DNA of 13,672 nucleotides. Origin: Promethearchaeota archaeon. GTDB taxonomy: Archaea; Asgardarchaeota; Lokiarchaeia; Sigyniarchaeales; SOKP01. The stretch lies in assembly GCA_004524535.1 (NCBI GenBank), contig SDNY01000100.1:1-13672 (forward strand), in the 5' to 3' direction. Shown here piece by piece: positions 2,429 through 13,531 of this stretch; the first letter of the stretch is position 1; each line of letters opens with the position of its first letter. The notes beneath the pieces were generated by a model. That model ran no database searches. It had not been told where the DNA came from and saw only the letters and a list, made by a program, of their open reading frames with translations. Made by a program: the position numbers and the translations under genes.

Positions 2429-3307
2429 ATGAAAAAATACGATTATTATTATTGGTCGTCTATGGTCGGTGGCGGCACAATAATGACTATCGTTTCATTT
2501 TTTCATGCTGATACATTTTTCAATATATTTTTTAACATTTGTCTCGGTCTGTTTATTGGTGGTCTTTTTTTTGCAGTCATTTCATTTTTTTTAGCTCAAA
2601 TGGAATCCAATATTGGAGGAGAAGAAATTGATCTTGATGCAGAAATCGATGTTGATATGGATGTAGACATCGACATTGATACCGATTTAGACATTGATGT
2701 TGATATGGATGTAGATGTTGATGCGGATGTAGATATTGATATTGATACTGATTTAGACATCGATGTTGATGCGGATGTAGACATTGACATTGATACCGAT
2801 ATAGATATCGATGTGGATACTGATATAGATACTGATATAGACTCAGAATTAGGAGTTATTTCACCTGCACCTGTGATGTTATTACTTTCTGCGGCCTTTT
2901 TGATTTACGGAATATCAGGGATAATATTATTTTATGCCATCGTGGATTCATTAAAATTTATTATATTTTTCGCGACACCTGCCATTGTATATTTAAGCTG
3001 GAAGGTTATTAATAACTCATGGAAAAAGATTACCAAGTCAAGATACTATTCGATTTCATCAACCATGAATCTAATAGGAAAAAAGGGCGAAGTCACTTTA
3101 GGGGTGGATAACAGAGGAGGGATTATTAGAATCCCCTCCTCCACTCCTATGAGATTTGAAAGAATACATGTCAAGCCATTGAAACCGAATTCTCGATTTG
3201 CGCTAGGAGAAAAAGTATATATTTGTGATGTGAGAAATGGTTTTTTATTAATAGATAATAATAAAAAATTAATTAAAAAAACGAGGTATTGGAAAAATGG
3301 TGGTTAA
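2429..3307 (+). CDS. NfeD/YqiJ-like membrane protein (3 TM helices, acidic xD-repeat loop, C-terminal OB-fold), probable partner of the SPFH protein
   Basis: Three hydrophobic segments. C-terminal LIGKKGEVTLGVDNRGGIIRI...FALGEKVYICDVRNGFLLID matches the NfeD-like OB domain, and the gene lies upstream of an SPFH gene. The true start may be ATG 2483 (GGTGG at 2468-2472). Confidence 0.8.
   Translation: MKKYDYYYWSSMVGGGTIMTIVSFFHADTFFNIFFNICLGLFIGGLFFAVISFFLAQMESNIGGEEIDLDAEIDVDMDVDIDIDTDLDIDVDMDVDVDADVDIDIDTDLDIDVDADVDIDIDTDIDIDVDTDIDTDIDSELGVISPAPVMLLLSAAFLIYGISGIILFYAIVDSLKFIIFFATPAIVYLSWKVINNSWKKITKSRYYSISSTMNLIGKKGEVTLGVDNRGGIIRIPSSTPMRFERIHVKPLKPNSRFALGEKVYICDVRNGFLLIDNNKKLIKKTRYWKNGG
2627..2842 (+). 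repeat. In-frame hexanucleotide-period repeat encoding (I/V/L/M/A/T-Asp) x36
   Basis: 216 nt translating to IDLDAEIDVDMDVDIDIDTDLD...TDID: 36 dipeptides with 35 Asp and 1 Glu at every second position. Confidence 0.97.
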
Positions 3308-3512
3308 TGAAAAGGTTATGGAAGAAAAATCGGTTAGGAACAAGAAAAGAAATCAAAATCAAAGCTATGTCTATATAATGGGTAAAAAATTAACTCCAAA
3401 GCAAGTGAATAAGAAAATCAAGCACAAACCTAGAGTAATTAGTACCATTCTTATAAATTCATTCATAATTCTTGCGATAATCATTACCATTCTATTAGTC
3501 ACAGGAATGTGA
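3297..3512 (+). CDS. Small basic protein with a C-terminal TM helix
   Basis: 71 aa, Lys/Arg-rich N-terminus and hydrophobic tail ILINSFIILAIIITILLVTGM. It overlaps the upstream ORF by 11 nt and has SD-like GAGGT at 3283-3287. Confidence 0.65.
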   Translation: MVVNEKVMEEKSVRNKKRNQNQSYVYIMGKKLTPKQVNKKIKHKPRVISTILINSFIILAIIITILLVTGM

Positions 3513-3626
3513 TGGTAGATCCAATGAAACTACAAAAATCTAATATCAATTTTTTAAAATTTAACGAAAAAAACAGAAAATAAAAAATAATAAAAATAAA
3601 AAAAAAGGAGGGATTAAGAAAAGAAA

Positions 3627-4799
3627 ATGTTGTTTAAAGAACCGGAAATAATGGTTTGGACTATAGGTGTCGTAGTAACAGTGATAATAATATTGTTCTT
3701 GTTCATTGTCTTTATGGCGACCCGATATCGGAAATTCAAGACAAACCAGTTTGTAATTCATTTACGTAATGGTAAAGTTAGGAGTGCTGGTTTAGGTGGA
3801 TCTTTATGGCTTTTGCCTTTAATAGACGAATATATTGTTATTCCAACAACAAGTATTCAGACAATTCTCGAAGCTCATGATCAGGTCGTTTCTAAAGAAT
3901 ACCAAAACATAGAAGTTGTCGGTATGTTGATTTGGAAAGTCATAGATCCTGAAAGAGCATTCAGTGCAGTTTCATGGTACCCTAGAGATGAAAATTATGT
4001 CGAAAAGATTTTGAAAGGAGCTGCTGAAGCAATTATTAGAACTACATGCGCTAATATGCCATTGGAACTAATAATTCGAGAGCGTCGTGAGATAATTGAA
4101 CATGTAGCCAAAGATTTACACGAATTGACTGCTGATTGGGGAGTTCTTATTGAATCGTTTGAAATTTTAGAAGTTATCATAGTAGAACAGGAATTAAAGA
4201 AAAATATGGAAGCTGTTAAACAAGCAGAAGAATTTAGAAAAGCAAGAATCGCAAAGGCAAATGCTGAAAGAGAATCACAATTAAGGGAATTAGAAGTCAA
4301 AAACGAGGTTGGAATTCAGGAACAACTCGTTGAACAAGCTATATCTATGCAACAGAAGGATAAGGAGATATCAGTTGCTGAAAAAGAACTTGAGCGTAAA
4401 AGAATTGAAGCTGATGGTGAACGACAAAAGAAAATAATCGAAGCTGACGCTGATGCTCAACAAATAAAGAGGAAACTTATTGCAAAAGCCGAAGGTGAAG
4501 CTGAGAATATAAAGCAACAAATGCTCGCTCAAGCCGAGGGTTTTAAAAAGCAAGTTGAGGCGATGACGAGCGCTGACGAGAGATTCTTAGCAGTCCAGTT
4601 AACTAACATCCTACCAGAGATTTTTAAGAACTTAAGTCCTGATAAGATGTTCATAATGGGGGACGGTAATGAATCGTTCAGTTCACTTTCAAAATCAATC
4701 ATGCCATTCTTACAATTACTTCCAGAATACTCTGATCAAATCAAGAAATTCTTTGGAAACGGTGGAATGAAAGAGGTTCTAGCAGAAATTAAGAAATAA
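3627..4799 (+). CDS. SPFH/band-7 domain, flotillin-like protein
   Basis: N-terminal TM helix, SPFH core (GLGGSLWLLPLIDE; LIWKVIDPERAF; IIRTTCANMPLELII; LTADWGVLIESFEI) and an Ala/Glu-rich coiled coil (EADGE, EADADA, KAEGEAE, QAEG). SD GGAGGG at 3607-3612. Confidence 0.93.
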   Translation: MLFKEPEIMVWTIGVVVTVIIILFLFIVFMATRYRKFKTNQFVIHLRNGKVRSAGLGGSLWLLPLIDEYIVIPTTSIQTILEAHDQVVSKEYQNIEVVGMLIWKVIDPERAFSAVSWYPRDENYVEKILKGAAEAIIRTTCANMPLELIIRERREIIEHVAKDLHELTADWGVLIESFEILEVIIVEQELKKNMEAVKQAEEFRKARIAKANAERESQLRELEVKNEVGIQEQLVEQAISMQQKDKEISVAEKELERKRIEADGERQKKIIEADADAQQIKRKLIAKAEGEAENIKQQMLAQAEGFKKQVEAMTSADERFLAVQLTNILPEIFKNLSPDKMFIMGDGNESFSSLSKSIMPFLQLLPEYSDQIKKFFGNGGMKEVLAEIKK

Positions 4800-8308: not shown

Positions 8309-8347
8309 CTTAAACAGAATTTAACGCCTCCGTGGCTTAGCCGGTAG

Positions 8348-8378
8348 ATAAAAACAATTATTAATAGTCTTAACCGCA
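8348..8378 (+). other. tRNA-Thr intron 1 (31 nt, D-arm, 22/23)
   Basis: Strict BHB: central helix CGGT(8342-8345)/ACCG(8373-8376), bulges AG|A and CA|A, inner helix TAA/TTA, outer pairs G8340-C8381 and C8341-G8380. Confidence 0.88.
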
Positions 8379-8393
8379 AGCATTGCCTTGGTA

Positions 8394-8422
8394 TTAAATT
8401 GAGCTTATAACTTTAAATGAAA
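8394..8422 (+). other. tRNA-Thr intron 2 (29 nt, canonical 37/38)
   Basis: Removal restores the 7-nt loop TTGGTAA. The central helix TTGG/ATGA is weak, and the inner stem is TTAAA/TTTAA. Confidence 0.85.
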
Positions 8423-8444
8423 AGGCAAAGGTCGCGGGTTCAAA

Positions 8445-8474
8445 GGATTGAAACACATCGTTTCTTTCAGAAAT
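8445..8474 (+). other. tRNA-Thr intron 3 (30 nt, T-loop, 59/60)
   Basis: Removal restores TTCAAAT. TTC(8439-8441) pairs with GAA(8470-8472), the 3' bulge is AT|T, and the internal hairpin is GAAAC/GTTTC. Confidence 0.85.
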
Positions 8475-8532
8475 TCCCGCCGGAGGCTTCTTATCATTAT
8501 CTTACAGTCTAGATATAATTTAAATACTCTTA

Positions 8533-10209
8533 TTACTCCAGATCTTGAAATTTGTTTGAAAATGTATTCCATATTTTGTTTAAATTCATACCAGAGAACA
8601 GATTATTTACCATATAATTCTTAGGATTAGCTGCTTTCCAATTGTCAAAATTGAATACGTGTTTACATATTAAAAGATGAAAATCTTCCTTTTCTAATTC
8701 AATTTTAGTAAGTCGTCCATTCTCATCTATTATATCAATTATTGCACCAAATTTTAAAATTTCAATAACTTTTTGTCTCTGTAATTTATATTTTAACTCT
8801 GATAATGAATTACAACCATTATTTTTAACAATTCTTTTGACGATTGTCTGAATTTTTGTCTTACCAATTGATAATATCTCAGCAATCGACTTTTGATTTG
8901 AACCAGAATAAGATCTTAACATTTTATTAGAAATAAACCATTCTTTCCATTGATATTCAGGAATCCCAACAAAGTTTTTTTCTGTTTTATCTAAATATTG
9001 CATAATTTCTTCCCAACTTGCTCTTGTGTCTATATTGAATAATTTATAGATTTTTTCGATATCTGTTTTTAAATATTCCTCTCCATAACTCCACTCATAA
9101 AACCAACCATCATTCAGTAATTCAGCATCCTTAAATGTTAAATAGATTTCATGCCTGGATATCCCTTCAATGCTATCTAAGTGTTCGATGATTGGTTTTA
9201 AAAACATTTCCTGAGCTTTATAAGATCCCCCAAAGATTTCAGTTATTTTATGCCTTAGAGTGCGGATCTTAACATCCTTTATATTATAAAATTCTTTTAA
9301 ATCTTTCAACATCTTAGGTGCGGATAATCCTAAAGCAATCATAATAGCAATATCATATAATGGTAATGGAAAATTTGTACCTGTTTGCCCACCTGAAGTA
9401 GTATTCAATCCTTTCTTTCTTAAATCTAAATATTCAGGATATTCATTATTGAAATCTTTTATTATAAGCCCTTGCTCAAATAGACTTTTTAGTGGAAAAT
9501 TTTTAATATAGTATATCTCTCTAGAACCGAGTTTAATAGAACTATAATGCAACTCAATGATACAAGGTCTAATATATGGTTTGATGTTATGTTCAATTTG
9601 GTGAAGAAACTTCCTTCTTTCATTATACCTCTGTAGAGCGGAAAGAGTAGATATTTTCTTATAGGTTTCTATTAAATCATAACCAATGTTTAAAAGAACA
9701 TTACATATTGCTTCATAAAACTTATGATATCCTGGTTGATTTATATCACCATTACTTTTATAATAACCTCTCAAAGCATTAATAATATGTTCTTCAAATC
9801 TTTTTTCTATTCTCTTTTCAGTAAGACCACAATAAAATAAGCCTTGAACATCAACTGCATAAATTAGACCTCCATATTCATATTTTCCAATATTATATAA
9901 TTTTAATGCCCCATGAAAATCAGGATCATTAAATGGAATATATTCTCTTCCTTTTTGATCAATTATAATCTTTTCTTCTGGATTATAAAGTCTATATTGC
10001 TTTTTTTGTTCTAGCTGTTTCATTAAGCTAGAGATTGCTTTTTTAGCCTCTTTTCCTATTAAGGAATCCAAATTAAGATATTTCTTAATTAATTCATGAA
10101 TTAATTCCTTCTTCTCAGATTTAAACCATACAGAAATCCCCTGATCAGGATTAATACCATTAATACTTGCTTTTTTTTCTTTATTAATTATGTTATTTCT
10201 TTCATTCAT
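8533..10209 (-). CDS. Free-standing GIY-YIG endonuclease-like protein with a long C-terminal putative DNA-binding region
   Basis: GLIY(114-117)-x8-YCG(126-128), KRFEEH (R137, H141), FYEAI, REIYYI (E231) and GLNTTSGG (N269) follow the GIY-YIG motif order, with insertions. HTH-like segments follow (e.g. SIAEILSIGKTKIQTIVKRI). Confidence 0.75.
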   Translation of the reverse strand: MNERNNIINKEKKASINGINPDQGISVWFKSEKKELIHELIKKYLNLDSLIGKEAKKAISSLMKQLEQKKQYRLYNPEEKIIIDQKGREYIPFNDPDFHGALKLYNIGKYEYGGLIYAVDVQGLFYCGLTEKRIEKRFEEHIINALRGYYKSNGDINQPGYHKFYEAICNVLLNIGYDLIETYKKISTLSALQRYNERRKFLHQIEHNIKPYIRPCIIELHYSSIKLGSREIYYIKNFPLKSLFEQGLIIKDFNNEYPEYLDLRKKGLNTTSGGQTGTNFPLPLYDIAIMIALGLSAPKMLKDLKEFYNIKDVKIRTLRHKITEIFGGSYKAQEMFLKPIIEHLDSIEGISRHEIYLTFKDAELLNDGWFYEWSYGEEYLKTDIEKIYKLFNIDTRASWEEIMQYLDKTEKNFVGIPEYQWKEWFISNKMLRSYSGSNQKSIAEILSIGKTKIQTIVKRIVKNNGCNSLSELKYKLQRQKVIEILKFGAIIDIIDENGRLTKIELEKEDFHLLICKHVFNFDNWKAANPKNYMVNNLFSGMNLNKIWNTFSNKFQDLE

Positions 10210-10525
10210 ACTGTTAATAGATTTATTAATTTTTTATGATAAAATCATTGATATAAATCAATCTTAAAATATAGGTTTCTTTGTGTCTAATTTCTCAAAA
10301 AAGTTTAGTTGAATATTCGGGTGATAATGGTAAATCATATCAACCATAATTTCCTCAATAATACTATAGATCTAATTAATTTAAAAGAAAAGAGTGATGT
10401 AATTTATAAATATAATCTTATTTGATAAAATAAAAAAGATAACACGAATTTTATATTTATTATTACAAATCAATATTTAAGTTTTTATATTAGCCGGTGT
10501 GGCTTAGCTGGTTATAGCGCCAGAC

Positions 10526-10568
10526 ACACGCTCATTCTGAGAGTTGGGTCAGACTGAATGTGCTGGAC
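10526..10568 (+). other. tRNA-Met intron 1 (43 nt, 32/33)
   Basis: BHB: CCAG(10520-10523)/CTGG(10563-10566), bulges AC|A and AC|T, inner helix CACG/TGTG, outer pair G10519-C10570. GAC at both ends makes the junction ambiguous by sequence alone, and BHB geometry selects 32/33. Confidence 0.85.
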
Positions 10569-10595
10569 TCATAATCTGGAGGTCGCGGGCTCAAA

Positions 10596-10624
10596 ATTAT
10601 ATACCATTTCGCTATAATTGAGAT
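10596..10624 (+). other. tRNA-Met intron 2 (29 nt, T-loop, 59/60)
   Basis: Central helix CTCA(10590-10593)/TGAG(10619-10622), 3' bulge AT|T, inner stem ATTATA/TATAAT. Confidence 0.87.
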
Positions 10625-10638
10625 TCCCGCCACCGGCA

Positions 10639-11266: not shown

Positions 11267-13531
11267 ATGAAATTTCGCAGAAAGATATTTAAAATAGTAA
11301 TTCCATTCATCGTATTTCTTTTTGGGATTACTACATGCTTAAATACTTTTTCCATCATAGACAACAATGCTACTAATAGAAATCTTAAAGATATAAAATA
11401 TAAAGAAACTCCTGCTTCCGCAACAAATTCAATATGGTATAGAGTATGGGGATATAATAAAACAGATTCTTGGGATATGGGAACAAGTGTAGCATATGAT
11501 TCAGTTGGGAATTATTATATGGTAGGACGTAGTTCTAACTCGAGAGATGCTGCATTTTTAGTAAAATACGATAATTCAGGCAATTATAAATGGAATAGAA
11601 CTTGGCACGGAGAGGGTTGGCCTGAAGCTAACGATGTTACTGTGGACTCATCAGATAATATCTATGTTACTGGTTCAATAAAAAAAGATGGTGTTTATGT
11701 TATAAATACATTAAAGTTCAATAAAACAGGAGGTCTAAAATGGAACTCAACTGCAGGAGCAGATTATGAATGTATTGGAGATGGAATAGCAATTGGACCT
11801 GATAATTACGTATATGTTGCAGGTGCAAATTATACGTTAGTAGGGCCTGATTATGTAGTATTATTGAAATATAATATGACGACGGGGAATATAGTGGATT
11901 TGAGATCCTATTCTGGTGTTGGTTCCACTTCTGGTATGGGTAAAGATATAGCTATAGATTCCTCTAAAAATATTTACATTGTCGGAACAAATCAATCAGG
12001 GGGCATACCTAATGAAATTTTATTATTAAAAATAAATAGCACTATGGATTTAAATTGGTCAAGAAGTTGGAAAAATCCTTATAAAGGTTTACATGTTAAT
12101 CAAGGTTACGGTGTTGATGTAGATTCTAACGGTGATATATACATAGTTGGACTTTATGAAGCATATGACTATTTCCCACCATATTATTACCATGATGGTG
12201 TTTTCTTAAAGTATAATGAGACGGGGCATTTACTTTGGGAAAAAATTTTACATAATCAATATAATAACACTGGTTTAGGTGATATTTATATATATCAAGA
12301 TAGGATATATATTTGTGGATTTCAAGGAGATTATGATGATGACGATGTGCTTGTGCTGGAATATAATACAACAGGAGGTTTGATAAATAAAACTTCCTGG
12401 GGCGGAACCGCTGATGATAGTGGTTGGGGTATAACTGTAAGAAATCCCTCAGATATAGTAATTGTAGGAAGAACAAGTTCATATGCGAGTGGATTCCCAG
12501 CAGACGCTTTTATATTAAAGTATTATCAACCAAGTATCTACCCTCCTGGAAGTTTCACACTGGACTCTAATGCGGGCGACCCAGATACAGATGGGAATTT
12601 CAATTTAACGTGGTCTAAATCTATCGGAGCTGATAATTATTCAGTTTATAGTCATGATGGTTTTATTCATCAAATAAAAAATAACGGTACTTTAGAAGAC
12701 CAGGGAATCGAAGATTTAAATTATACAATCTCAGGATTAACAAGTGGAGATTATTATTATATAGTAATTGCTTATAATGAAACAGGAAATACCTCATCTA
12801 ACTGTTTACAAGTATCTGTTCGAATCCCTCCCAAAGCCTTTAATATGTTTACTGATGCCAATGATCCAGATACCGATGGGAATTTCAATTTAACGTGGTC
12901 TAAGTCTATCGGAGCCGATAATTATTCTGTTTATAGTCATGATGTTTTTATTCATCAAATAAAAAATAATGGTACTTTAGAAGTCCAGGGAATCGAAGAA
13001 TTAAATCATACAATCTCAGGATTAACTAGTGGCGATTATTATTATATTGTAATTGCTTACAATGAAACAGGAAATACCTCATCTAACTGTACACAAGTAT
13101 CTGTTCGAATCCCTCCCAAAGCCTTTAATATGTTTACTGATGCTAATGATCCAGATACCGATGGGAATTTCAATTTAACGTGGTCTAAATCTATCGGAGC
13201 TGATAATTACTCTGTATATCGATCTAATAATCCAATTTCAAATCTAGATAATTGTATTGAAGTTAAAAGTTATATTACTGATCTCAATTATACAGTCACT
13301 GGGATGAAGACTGGAACCTACTATTTTGTAATTGTGGCTTATAATGCAACAGGATTTACTTTGTCTGATTATGTTCAGGTCAATGTTAGTATACCTCTAA
13401 ACGGATTGCCCCCTGCCCAAGGCGGAAATGATGATGATGATGATAGTGAAGATGGAATTATACCTAGTTATGATATTTATTTAATATTAATTTTAACAAC
13501 ATGCATTTCTTTAATTTATTATCGAGTATGA
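11267..13531 (+). CDS. Secreted/surface protein: SBBP-type beta-propeller, three FN3-like domains, acidic linker, Loki-CTERM-like anchor
   Basis: Signal peptide (MKFRRKIFKIVIPFIVFLFG), repeated (V/I)xxDSxxNIYVxG...LxKY(D/N)xxG blades, three NFNLTW...YSVY...YT(I/V)xG...YYxxxxAYNxTG units, and DDDDDSED followed by IIPSYDIYLILILTTCISLIYYRV. Many N-x-S/T sequons. Confidence 0.88.
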   Translation: MKFRRKIFKIVIPFIVFLFGITTCLNTFSIIDNNATNRNLKDIKYKETPASATNSIWYRVWGYNKTDSWDMGTSVAYDSVGNYYMVGRSSNSRDAAFLVKYDNSGNYKWNRTWHGEGWPEANDVTVDSSDNIYVTGSIKKDGVYVINTLKFNKTGGLKWNSTAGADYECIGDGIAIGPDNYVYVAGANYTLVGPDYVVLLKYNMTTGNIVDLRSYSGVGSTSGMGKDIAIDSSKNIYIVGTNQSGGIPNEILLLKINSTMDLNWSRSWKNPYKGLHVNQGYGVDVDSNGDIYIVGLYEAYDYFPPYYYHDGVFLKYNETGHLLWEKILHNQYNNTGLGDIYIYQDRIYICGFQGDYDDDDVLVLEYNTTGGLINKTSWGGTADDSGWGITVRNPSDIVIVGRTSSYASGFPADAFILKYYQPSIYPPGSFTLDSNAGDPDTDGNFNLTWSKSIGADNYSVYSHDGFIHQIKNNGTLEDQGIEDLNYTISGLTSGDYYYIVIAYNETGNTSSNCLQVSVRIPPKAFNMFTDANDPDTDGNFNLTWSKSIGADNYSVYSHDVFIHQIKNNGTLEVQGIEELNHTISGLTSGDYYYIVIAYNETGNTSSNCTQVSVRIPPKAFNMFTDANDPDTDGNFNLTWSKSIGADNYSVYRSNNPISNLDNCIEVKSYITDLNYTVTGMKTGTYYFVIVAYNATGFTLSDYVQVNVSIPLNGLPPAQGGNDDDDDSEDGIIPSYDIYLILILTTCISLIYYRV
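12578..13218 (+). repeat. Intragenic tandem repeat, 285-bp (95-codon) period, about 2.25 copies
   Basis: ATGGGAATTTCAATTTAACGTGGTCTAA recurs at 12591, 12876 and 13161. Copies 12578-12862 and 12863-13147 differ at 17 positions by hand count. Confidence 0.96.

Follow-up and report, generated by a model that had tools for sequence, protein, structure and literature searches.

The segment at positions 8326..8488 (+) is very probably (probability about 0.92) the working, enzyme-spliced tRNA-Thr(GGU) gene of this genome, and it is interrupted by three introns. The initial annotation of the window (the whole 13,672-nt stretch of DNA that was analysed) had placed a triple-intron tRNA-Thr(GGU) there, with introns of 31, 29 and 30 nt at positions 22/23, 37/38 and 59/60; the coordinates, lengths and sites all hold. 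Removal of the introns gives a 73-nt cloverleaf with 7-4-5-5 stems and the conserved bases in place. The exons form four GC-rich blocks (73 nt in total, 62% GC) and the introns are AT-rich (17-33% GC). The parts of the gene are:

8326..8347 (+): exon 1, tRNA positions 1-22, acceptor 5' strand and D arm
8348..8378 (+): intron 1, 31 nt, at 22/23; strict hBHBh' motif, 8342-8345 pairing with 8373-8376
8379..8393 (+): exon 2, positions 23-37; anticodon GGT at 8390-8392
8394..8422 (+): intron 2, 29 nt, at the canonical 37/38; relaxed motif with 3/4 central pairs, two of them G-U
8423..8444 (+): exon 3, positions 38-59
8445..8474 (+): intron 3, 30 nt, at 59/60; relaxed motif with 3/4 central pairs on an intact T stem
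8475..8488 (+): exon 4, positions 60-73; discriminator U73; CCA not encoded

Evidence for the gene and its boundaries

The decisive evidence that the three introns are real is comparative. Candidate loci were collected from 160 genomes of the class (107 loci); 103 of them could be aligned as tRNA-Thr(GGU), and the remaining 4 scored too low and were left out. Eleven of the 103 orthologues are intron-less and read colinearly through all three insertion sites. The in-silico spliced product is recognised by ARAGORN as tRNA-Thr(ggt) with a score of 122.9. Since shifted exon boundaries, some yielding Ser or Phe anticodons, tie with this score, the boundaries were set by the bulge-helix-bulge register and by alignment to the intron-less orthologues, both of which give 22/23, 37/38 and 59/60. 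The unspliced gene is called by neither ARAGORN nor Rfam cmscan, in the raw window or in the genome, and the expectation that default annotation would probably miss it is therefore borne out for these two standard finders.

No second copy of exons 1, 2 and 4 was found in the 3.66-Mb, 99%-complete assembly (198 contigs), in which exon 3 has a single near match, within tRNA-Ala(GGC). The intact tRNA-Thr(GGT) elsewhere that would have spoken against the initial annotation was thus not found among these contigs. The codons ACU and ACC make up 51% of the Thr codons in the long ORFs of the genome, and a separate tRNA-Thr(UGU) gene lies elsewhere. Upstream of the gene, no conserved promoter position emerged among 102 flanks, and a sigma-70 scan, a model not suited to archaea, gave chance levels.

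Splice motifs and pairing

The motif of intron 1 combines 4/4 central pairs with helices of 2 pairs on the exon side and 3 pairs on the intron side, and it is matched by 0.065% of 20,000 shuffles. The 3/4 central pairs of introns 2 and 3, which stand on full anticodon and T stems, are matched by 31% and 14% of shuffles, respectively. Shuffles reach these two motifs so often that the motifs alone are weak evidence; the available text of a 2026 preprint on Asgard tRNA introns likewise reports that the relaxed motif class often arises by chance. The central-helix probabilities computed with ViennaRNA are 0.54-0.98 for intron 1 and 0-0.05 for introns 2 and 3, and are unchanged upon removal of the other introns. 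Consequently, the helices of introns 2 and 3 must form on the enzyme or be recognised as loops.

Among the orthologues the central pairs are kept in 55/56 cells at 22/23, 92/108 at 37/38 and 121/144 at 59/60. The first pair at 59/60 alternates between T-A (24), A-T (9) and G-T (3), and both sides change where T54 is replaced by A. The observed count of compensatory pairing at this site was reached in 0 of 2000 permutations, the relatives counted not being independent of each other. The motif of intron 1 would borrow bases of the D loop, while those of introns 2 and 3 would be built on the anticodon and T stems. As the three motifs would then occupy separate stretches of RNA, no fixed order of removal would be needed.

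A dead tRNA, or another splice register giving a different anticodon, would agree with the tied ARAGORN scores and with the weak motifs of introns 2 and 3. It is nevertheless most improbable: all stems are intact, the intron-less orthologues have the same exons and the same GGU, no other tRNA-Thr(GGU) was found in the assembly, and Ser(GGA) and Phe(GAA) have genes of their own.

Splicing machinery

The genome encodes RtcB and, on the separate contigs C100 and C84, two EndA paralogues. The alpha paralogue contains the catalytic Tyr/His/Lys triad and, in its N-terminal domain, a loop Lys that aligns to that of the Aeropyrum pernix alpha subunit. The beta paralogue is devoid of the His/Lys pair and also matches the beta-subunit model. 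The loop motif is present in 80/80 relatives compared. In the portion of Kaneta et al. 2018 (PMC5829648) that was available, Asgard archaea are described as having an (alpha-beta)2 EndA with an L1 loop that confers broad specificity, and the role of the loop Lys is treated in the same source. Of the two broad-specificity forms anticipated for such sites, (alpha-beta)2 and epsilon2, the former agrees with the gene content of this genome, namely two paralogues, one of them catalytic, with the L1/CSL loop Lys present. According to the available text of the 2026 preprint, no Asgard EndA has yet been assayed on such introns. From the known machinery we infer that the tRNA-Thr transcript would be cleaved, ligated and provided with its CCA end.

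The closest relatives of the EndA proteins (74-94% identical) are mostly Promethearchaeota, which supports the view of an Asgard genome. The suggestion that the gene bears on the origin of eukaryotic TSEN gained nothing specific: the (alpha-beta)2 EndA of Asgard archaea and its L1 loop were already described in 2018, and the alpha paralogue matches Aeropyrum EndA (E 8e-37) better than Sen34 (E 2e-12).

Introns in the genome and in the orthologues

A splice-aware search of the genome returned 33 tRNA genes, set apart from lower-scoring candidates by a clear gap, and a motif scan together with an earlier run of the search added four more, for a total of 37. Introns occur in 30 of these 37 genes. 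The set is incomplete, with no Trp or Cys gene found. ARAGORN without intron search makes 9 tRNA calls in the genome, against at least 37 genes present. At least five of the 37 genes, those for Thr(GGU), His, Asn, Phe and Tyr, have three well-parsed introns, and a sixth three-way parse, Val(UAC), probably has two. In addition, a probable tRNA-Ile(UAU), probably with about three introns, lies at C188:19349-19519 (+).

The 103 tRNA-Thr orthologues contain zero, one, two or three introns in 11, 64, 26 and 2 cases, respectively. Site 22/23 is occupied in 14 of them, 37/38 in 32 and 59/60 in 42. The combination of the three sites is seen once, with 1.8 expected under independence. Genes with three or more introns number 2 against 8.7 expected under independence; since the search is biased towards genes whose anchor stretches are free of introns, heavily interrupted genes are undercounted and nothing is drawn from this deficit. 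The three introns of the present gene probably reflect a coincidental filling of three commonly used sites, at which introns appear to be gained and lost throughout the family.

The rarity that the initial annotation attributed to three-intron tRNAs does not stand in this setting, given the at least five triple genes among 37, the common use of all three sites in the 103 orthologues and the published Asgard tRNAs with several insertions. In the portions of the literature available, 92-95% of the tRNA genes in three complete Asgard genomes have introns, and more than half have several (PMC11291895). The 2026 preprint gives 2.2 introns per gene and up to five, and the 22/23 and 59/60 sites as well as three-intron genes are listed for Crenarchaeota (PMC4090602). 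The tRNA-Thr(GGU) gene therefore belongs to a known kind. It adds a further case to an Asgard trait that is already described, and it confirms that the tRNA annotation of Loki-type genomes is incomplete.

The spacer between tRNA-Thr and tRNA-Met

Two features follow the tRNA-Thr gene in the window:

8533..10209 (-): ORF of 558 aa, free-standing between tRNA-Thr and tRNA-Met, with a putative GIY-YIG-like nuclease domain; its end lies 44 nt behind tRNA-Thr
10493..10638 (+): elongator tRNA-Met(CAT) with two introns, 43 nt at 32/33 and 29 nt at 59/60

The GIY-YIG-like ORF is single-copy in the genome. Residues Tyr117, Tyr126, Gly128, Arg137, His141 and Glu231 are invariant across three homologues and presumably correspond to the active site of I-TevI. 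The look-alikes of the ORF in the Atlas are GIY-YIG proteins, at lead level (scores below 0.9, TM below 0.5), and no nuclease match was found in Pfam or NCBIfam. Most homologues lie away from tRNAs: the splice-aware finder detects tRNAs in the 1.5-kb flanks of 1 of 29 other loci. Further tRNA-associated homologues are a remnant in G022 and one in G152, where ARAGORN calls a tRNA-Trp in the wider region. A homologue in G011, 42% identical to the ORF, adjoins tRNA-Ser(GCU) and a three-intron tRNA-Val(UAC) (L203).

The spacer measures 2004 nt here and at most 30 nt in 62 of 92 relatives. An endonuclease ORF occupies it in 11 of the 92 loci with a downstream tRNA-Met (LAGLIDADG group A in 6, group B in 3, GIY-YIG-like in 2), and two of the 11 ORFs are truncated. 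The two LAGLIDADG groups are unrelated to each other. Another 15 spacers of 90-279 nt match the ends of such nuclease insertions, and 4 are of other kinds or unassigned. The nuclease genes thus have a patchy distribution among the relatives, at one constant intergenic position, and some copies have decayed. Neither a duplicated tRNA-Thr end nor an old tRNA-Met start was found in the spacer of this genome.

In the spacer of G068 (L249), a shortened copy of the tRNA-Met 5' end stands just before the LAGLIDADG gene, as if a cassette had replaced the tRNA-Met start. The 43-nt intron at 32/33 of the present tRNA-Met shares a conserved core that most relatives hold in an intron of 31-34 nt at 37/38. 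It looks as if this intron has changed position, perhaps via duplication of the anticodon arm, and its conserved core may be a guide module.

Intron length

The near-equal lengths of the three introns had been taken as a sign of a size constraint. The part of this claim that stands concerns the non-canonical introns, which cluster around 30 nt family-wide. Among the distinct non-canonical introns of the Thr orthologues, 72 of 80 measure 28-31 nt, 55 of them exactly 30, at ten sites; the canonical ones fall in this range in 10 of 28 cases (Fisher p 6e-8, kinship ignored). Of the non-canonical introns in this genome that could be parsed clearly, 30 of 35 measure 28-31 nt, compared with 3 of 9 canonical ones (range 16-53 nt), two ambiguous parses (the Val(UAC) T loop and Leu(UAG)) being left out of the count. 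On the other hand, the 29 nt of the canonical intron 2 are coincidental, as introns at 37/38 range over 19-31 nt in the orthologues, and the splicing enzyme apparently needs no 30 nt.

A length imposed by splicing would account for the 30 of 35 non-canonical introns of this genome. It is improbable, however, as the same genome has canonical introns of 16, 20, 48 and 53 nt and a D-loop intron of 20 nt, as most of the distinct canonical introns of the orthologues lie outside 28-31 nt, and as the median in other Asgard families is 22-23 nt in the available text of the 2026 preprint. Since the splicing enzyme must also process much shorter and much longer introns, we infer that the 30-nt mode is an insertion-size signature rather than a splicing limit. 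A literature search returned no paper on a 30-nt mode of tRNA introns; supplements may contain such data. A histone footprint or a Cas1-type ruler are conceivable sources of this size. In tRNA-Leu(UAG), tRNA-Leu(CAA) and tRNA-Tyr (C174:9072-9221, C174:20186-20352 and C24:6086-6270), a single site holds an insertion of 48-64 nt, which may include a 30-nt intron that lies within a second intron.

Origin and spread of the introns

Independent gain and loss at a few permissive sites, through some unspecified route that inserts about 30 nt, is given slightly better than even odds; the nuclease gene would then be a passenger of a safe intergenic slot. Several unrelated intron families are found per site, no pair among 48 introns of 33 genes in the genome exceeds 74% core identity, and the length class of 28-31 nt recurs at ten sites. 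The 2026 preprint also reports repeated independent gains and, in its available text, no general route. On the other hand, near-identical introns across genera, together with alleles scattered on the rpoB tree (29 allele-type changes), need lateral exchange or many losses. Such exchange would be provided by collaborative homing, a tentative alternative in which the spacer endonucleases cleave alleles that lack an intron and transfer the intron closest to them between lineages. That intron is the one at 59/60, 14 nt from the end of the gene, and the present GIY-YIG-like gene would have helped to bring intron 3. The 11 spacers with an endonuclease ORF and the 15 shorter ones that match insertion ends agree with this alternative. 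The 59/60 intron is found in 17/26 loci with a nuclease trace against 22/62 short-spacer loci (Fisher p 0.018, kinship ignored), and in 7/7 loci with LAGLIDADG group B or its tRNA-proximal remnant. However, a kinship-aware sign test gives median p values of 0.18 (any trace), 0.23 (ORF or remnant) and 0.06 (LAGLIDADG group B, defined post hoc). The link between nuclease and 59/60 intron is suggestive and is not significant once kinship is allowed for.

The distribution of the 59/60 intron also favours its transfer. On the rpoB tree of 87 genomes, which rests on one gene and on assembled genomes, some possibly mis-binned, 59/60 changes 25 times, near the 28.9 of shuffled labels, unlike 22/23, 37/38 and 43/44 with ratios of 0.53, 0.43 and 0.64. 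Two genera share a 59/60 intron core at 96% identity, and the core of intron 3 is 70% like introns of another genus, with a shuffle 95th percentile of 52%. Two sister genomes of the present one (G000) have no intron, a 15-nt spacer and no nuclease. Several observations nevertheless count against homing. The 59/60 intron occurs at 22 loci with no nuclease trace, whereas two LAGLIDADG loci (G065, G066) are without a Thr intron and the other GIY-YIG locus (G022) is without the 59/60 intron. This site is the commonest non-canonical one in other tRNAs of the genome as well, and the scar in G068 indicates tRNA-Met as the target. For introns 1 and 2, no orthologue gives a match above the level of shuffles, and homing accounts for spread, not for first origin. 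A literature search returned no paper on collaborative homing of tRNA introns in Asgard archaea. Independent gain and loss remains the preferred reading.

It is possible, with the odds against it, that the Loki-type non-canonical tRNA introns are fixed-size modules of about 30 nt, spread between species with free-standing homing endonucleases in tRNA operon spacers, and that the three-intron allele and its GIY-YIG neighbour are products of that traffic. If so, the Thr-Met spacer, which at least three lineages of nucleases have entered, would be a place to test how Asgard tRNA introns move. The sharp 30-nt mode would point to a sized insertion step, and the adjacent nuclease genes to a route of lateral spread. 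Both observations, if they hold, would bear on how intron DNA enters Asgard tRNA genes, a question left open in the available text of the 2026 preprint.

Exon repeats were seen at two kinds of D-arm intron. The 46-nt intron at 20/21 of a tRNA-Thr in G011 (L008) has a 3' end that repeats the upstream D-arm exon, and the D-arm introns of G133 and G142 (20-27 nt) have a start that repeats the downstream exon. Intron birth by local duplication is a possible reading of these repeats.

Relation to known systems

The comparisons below refer to the available parts of each source. The Asgard tRNAs of the 2026 preprint resemble the present case in several respects: short BHB introns in the D, anticodon and T arms that occur several to a gene, oversight by annotators, an (alpha-beta)2 EndA, and repeated gains with little sharing between tRNA types. 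The preprint focuses on Freyr-, Jordi- and Atabeyarchaeaceae, with a median of 22-23 nt and 2.2 introns per gene, in contrast to the 30-nt non-canonical mode described here. In its main text it mentions neither Loki nor Promethearchaeota; its supplements may cover Loki genomes.

In Thermoproteales, for example in the Pyrobaculum islandicum tRNA-Pro(UGG) with introns at 25/26, 37/38 and 56/57 (PMC4090602), one canonical and two non-canonical introns are combined with the same enzyme class, as here. Introns in that group are often copied between tRNA types (PMC4090602), whereas the three introns described here have no close counterpart in any other tRNA gene found in the genome. A test for such copying gave a best core identity of 0.74 among the 48 introns of 33 genes, in a pair that does not involve tRNA-Thr(GGU).

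The tRNA-Thr(GGU) of Caldiarchaeum subterraneum (PMC3293823) is the same isoacceptor, with an intron gain that differs among close relatives and mobile DNA proposed as the carrier. An integrating element and a tRNA fragment are found there (PMC3293823), whereas the present spacer holds no duplicate tRNA-Thr fragment and the neighbour is a lone nuclease-like gene. The collaborative homing of phage T4 SegB (PMC2988022) likewise involves a free-standing GIY-YIG gene between two tRNA genes and a nearby intron without its own nuclease. The setting here differs from SegB (PMC2988022) in being a cellular archaeal chromosome with protein-spliced 30-nt introns and a larger, putative nuclease.

Other genes in the window

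A 754-aa secreted-looking protein with an SBBP beta-propeller and repeated fibronectin type III-like domains is encoded at 11267-13531 (+). At 2429-4799 (+), upstream of an SPFH/flotillin-like gene, lies the gene of a membrane protein that looks NfeD-like on reading of its sequence and contains an Asp/Ile/Val low-complexity tract.
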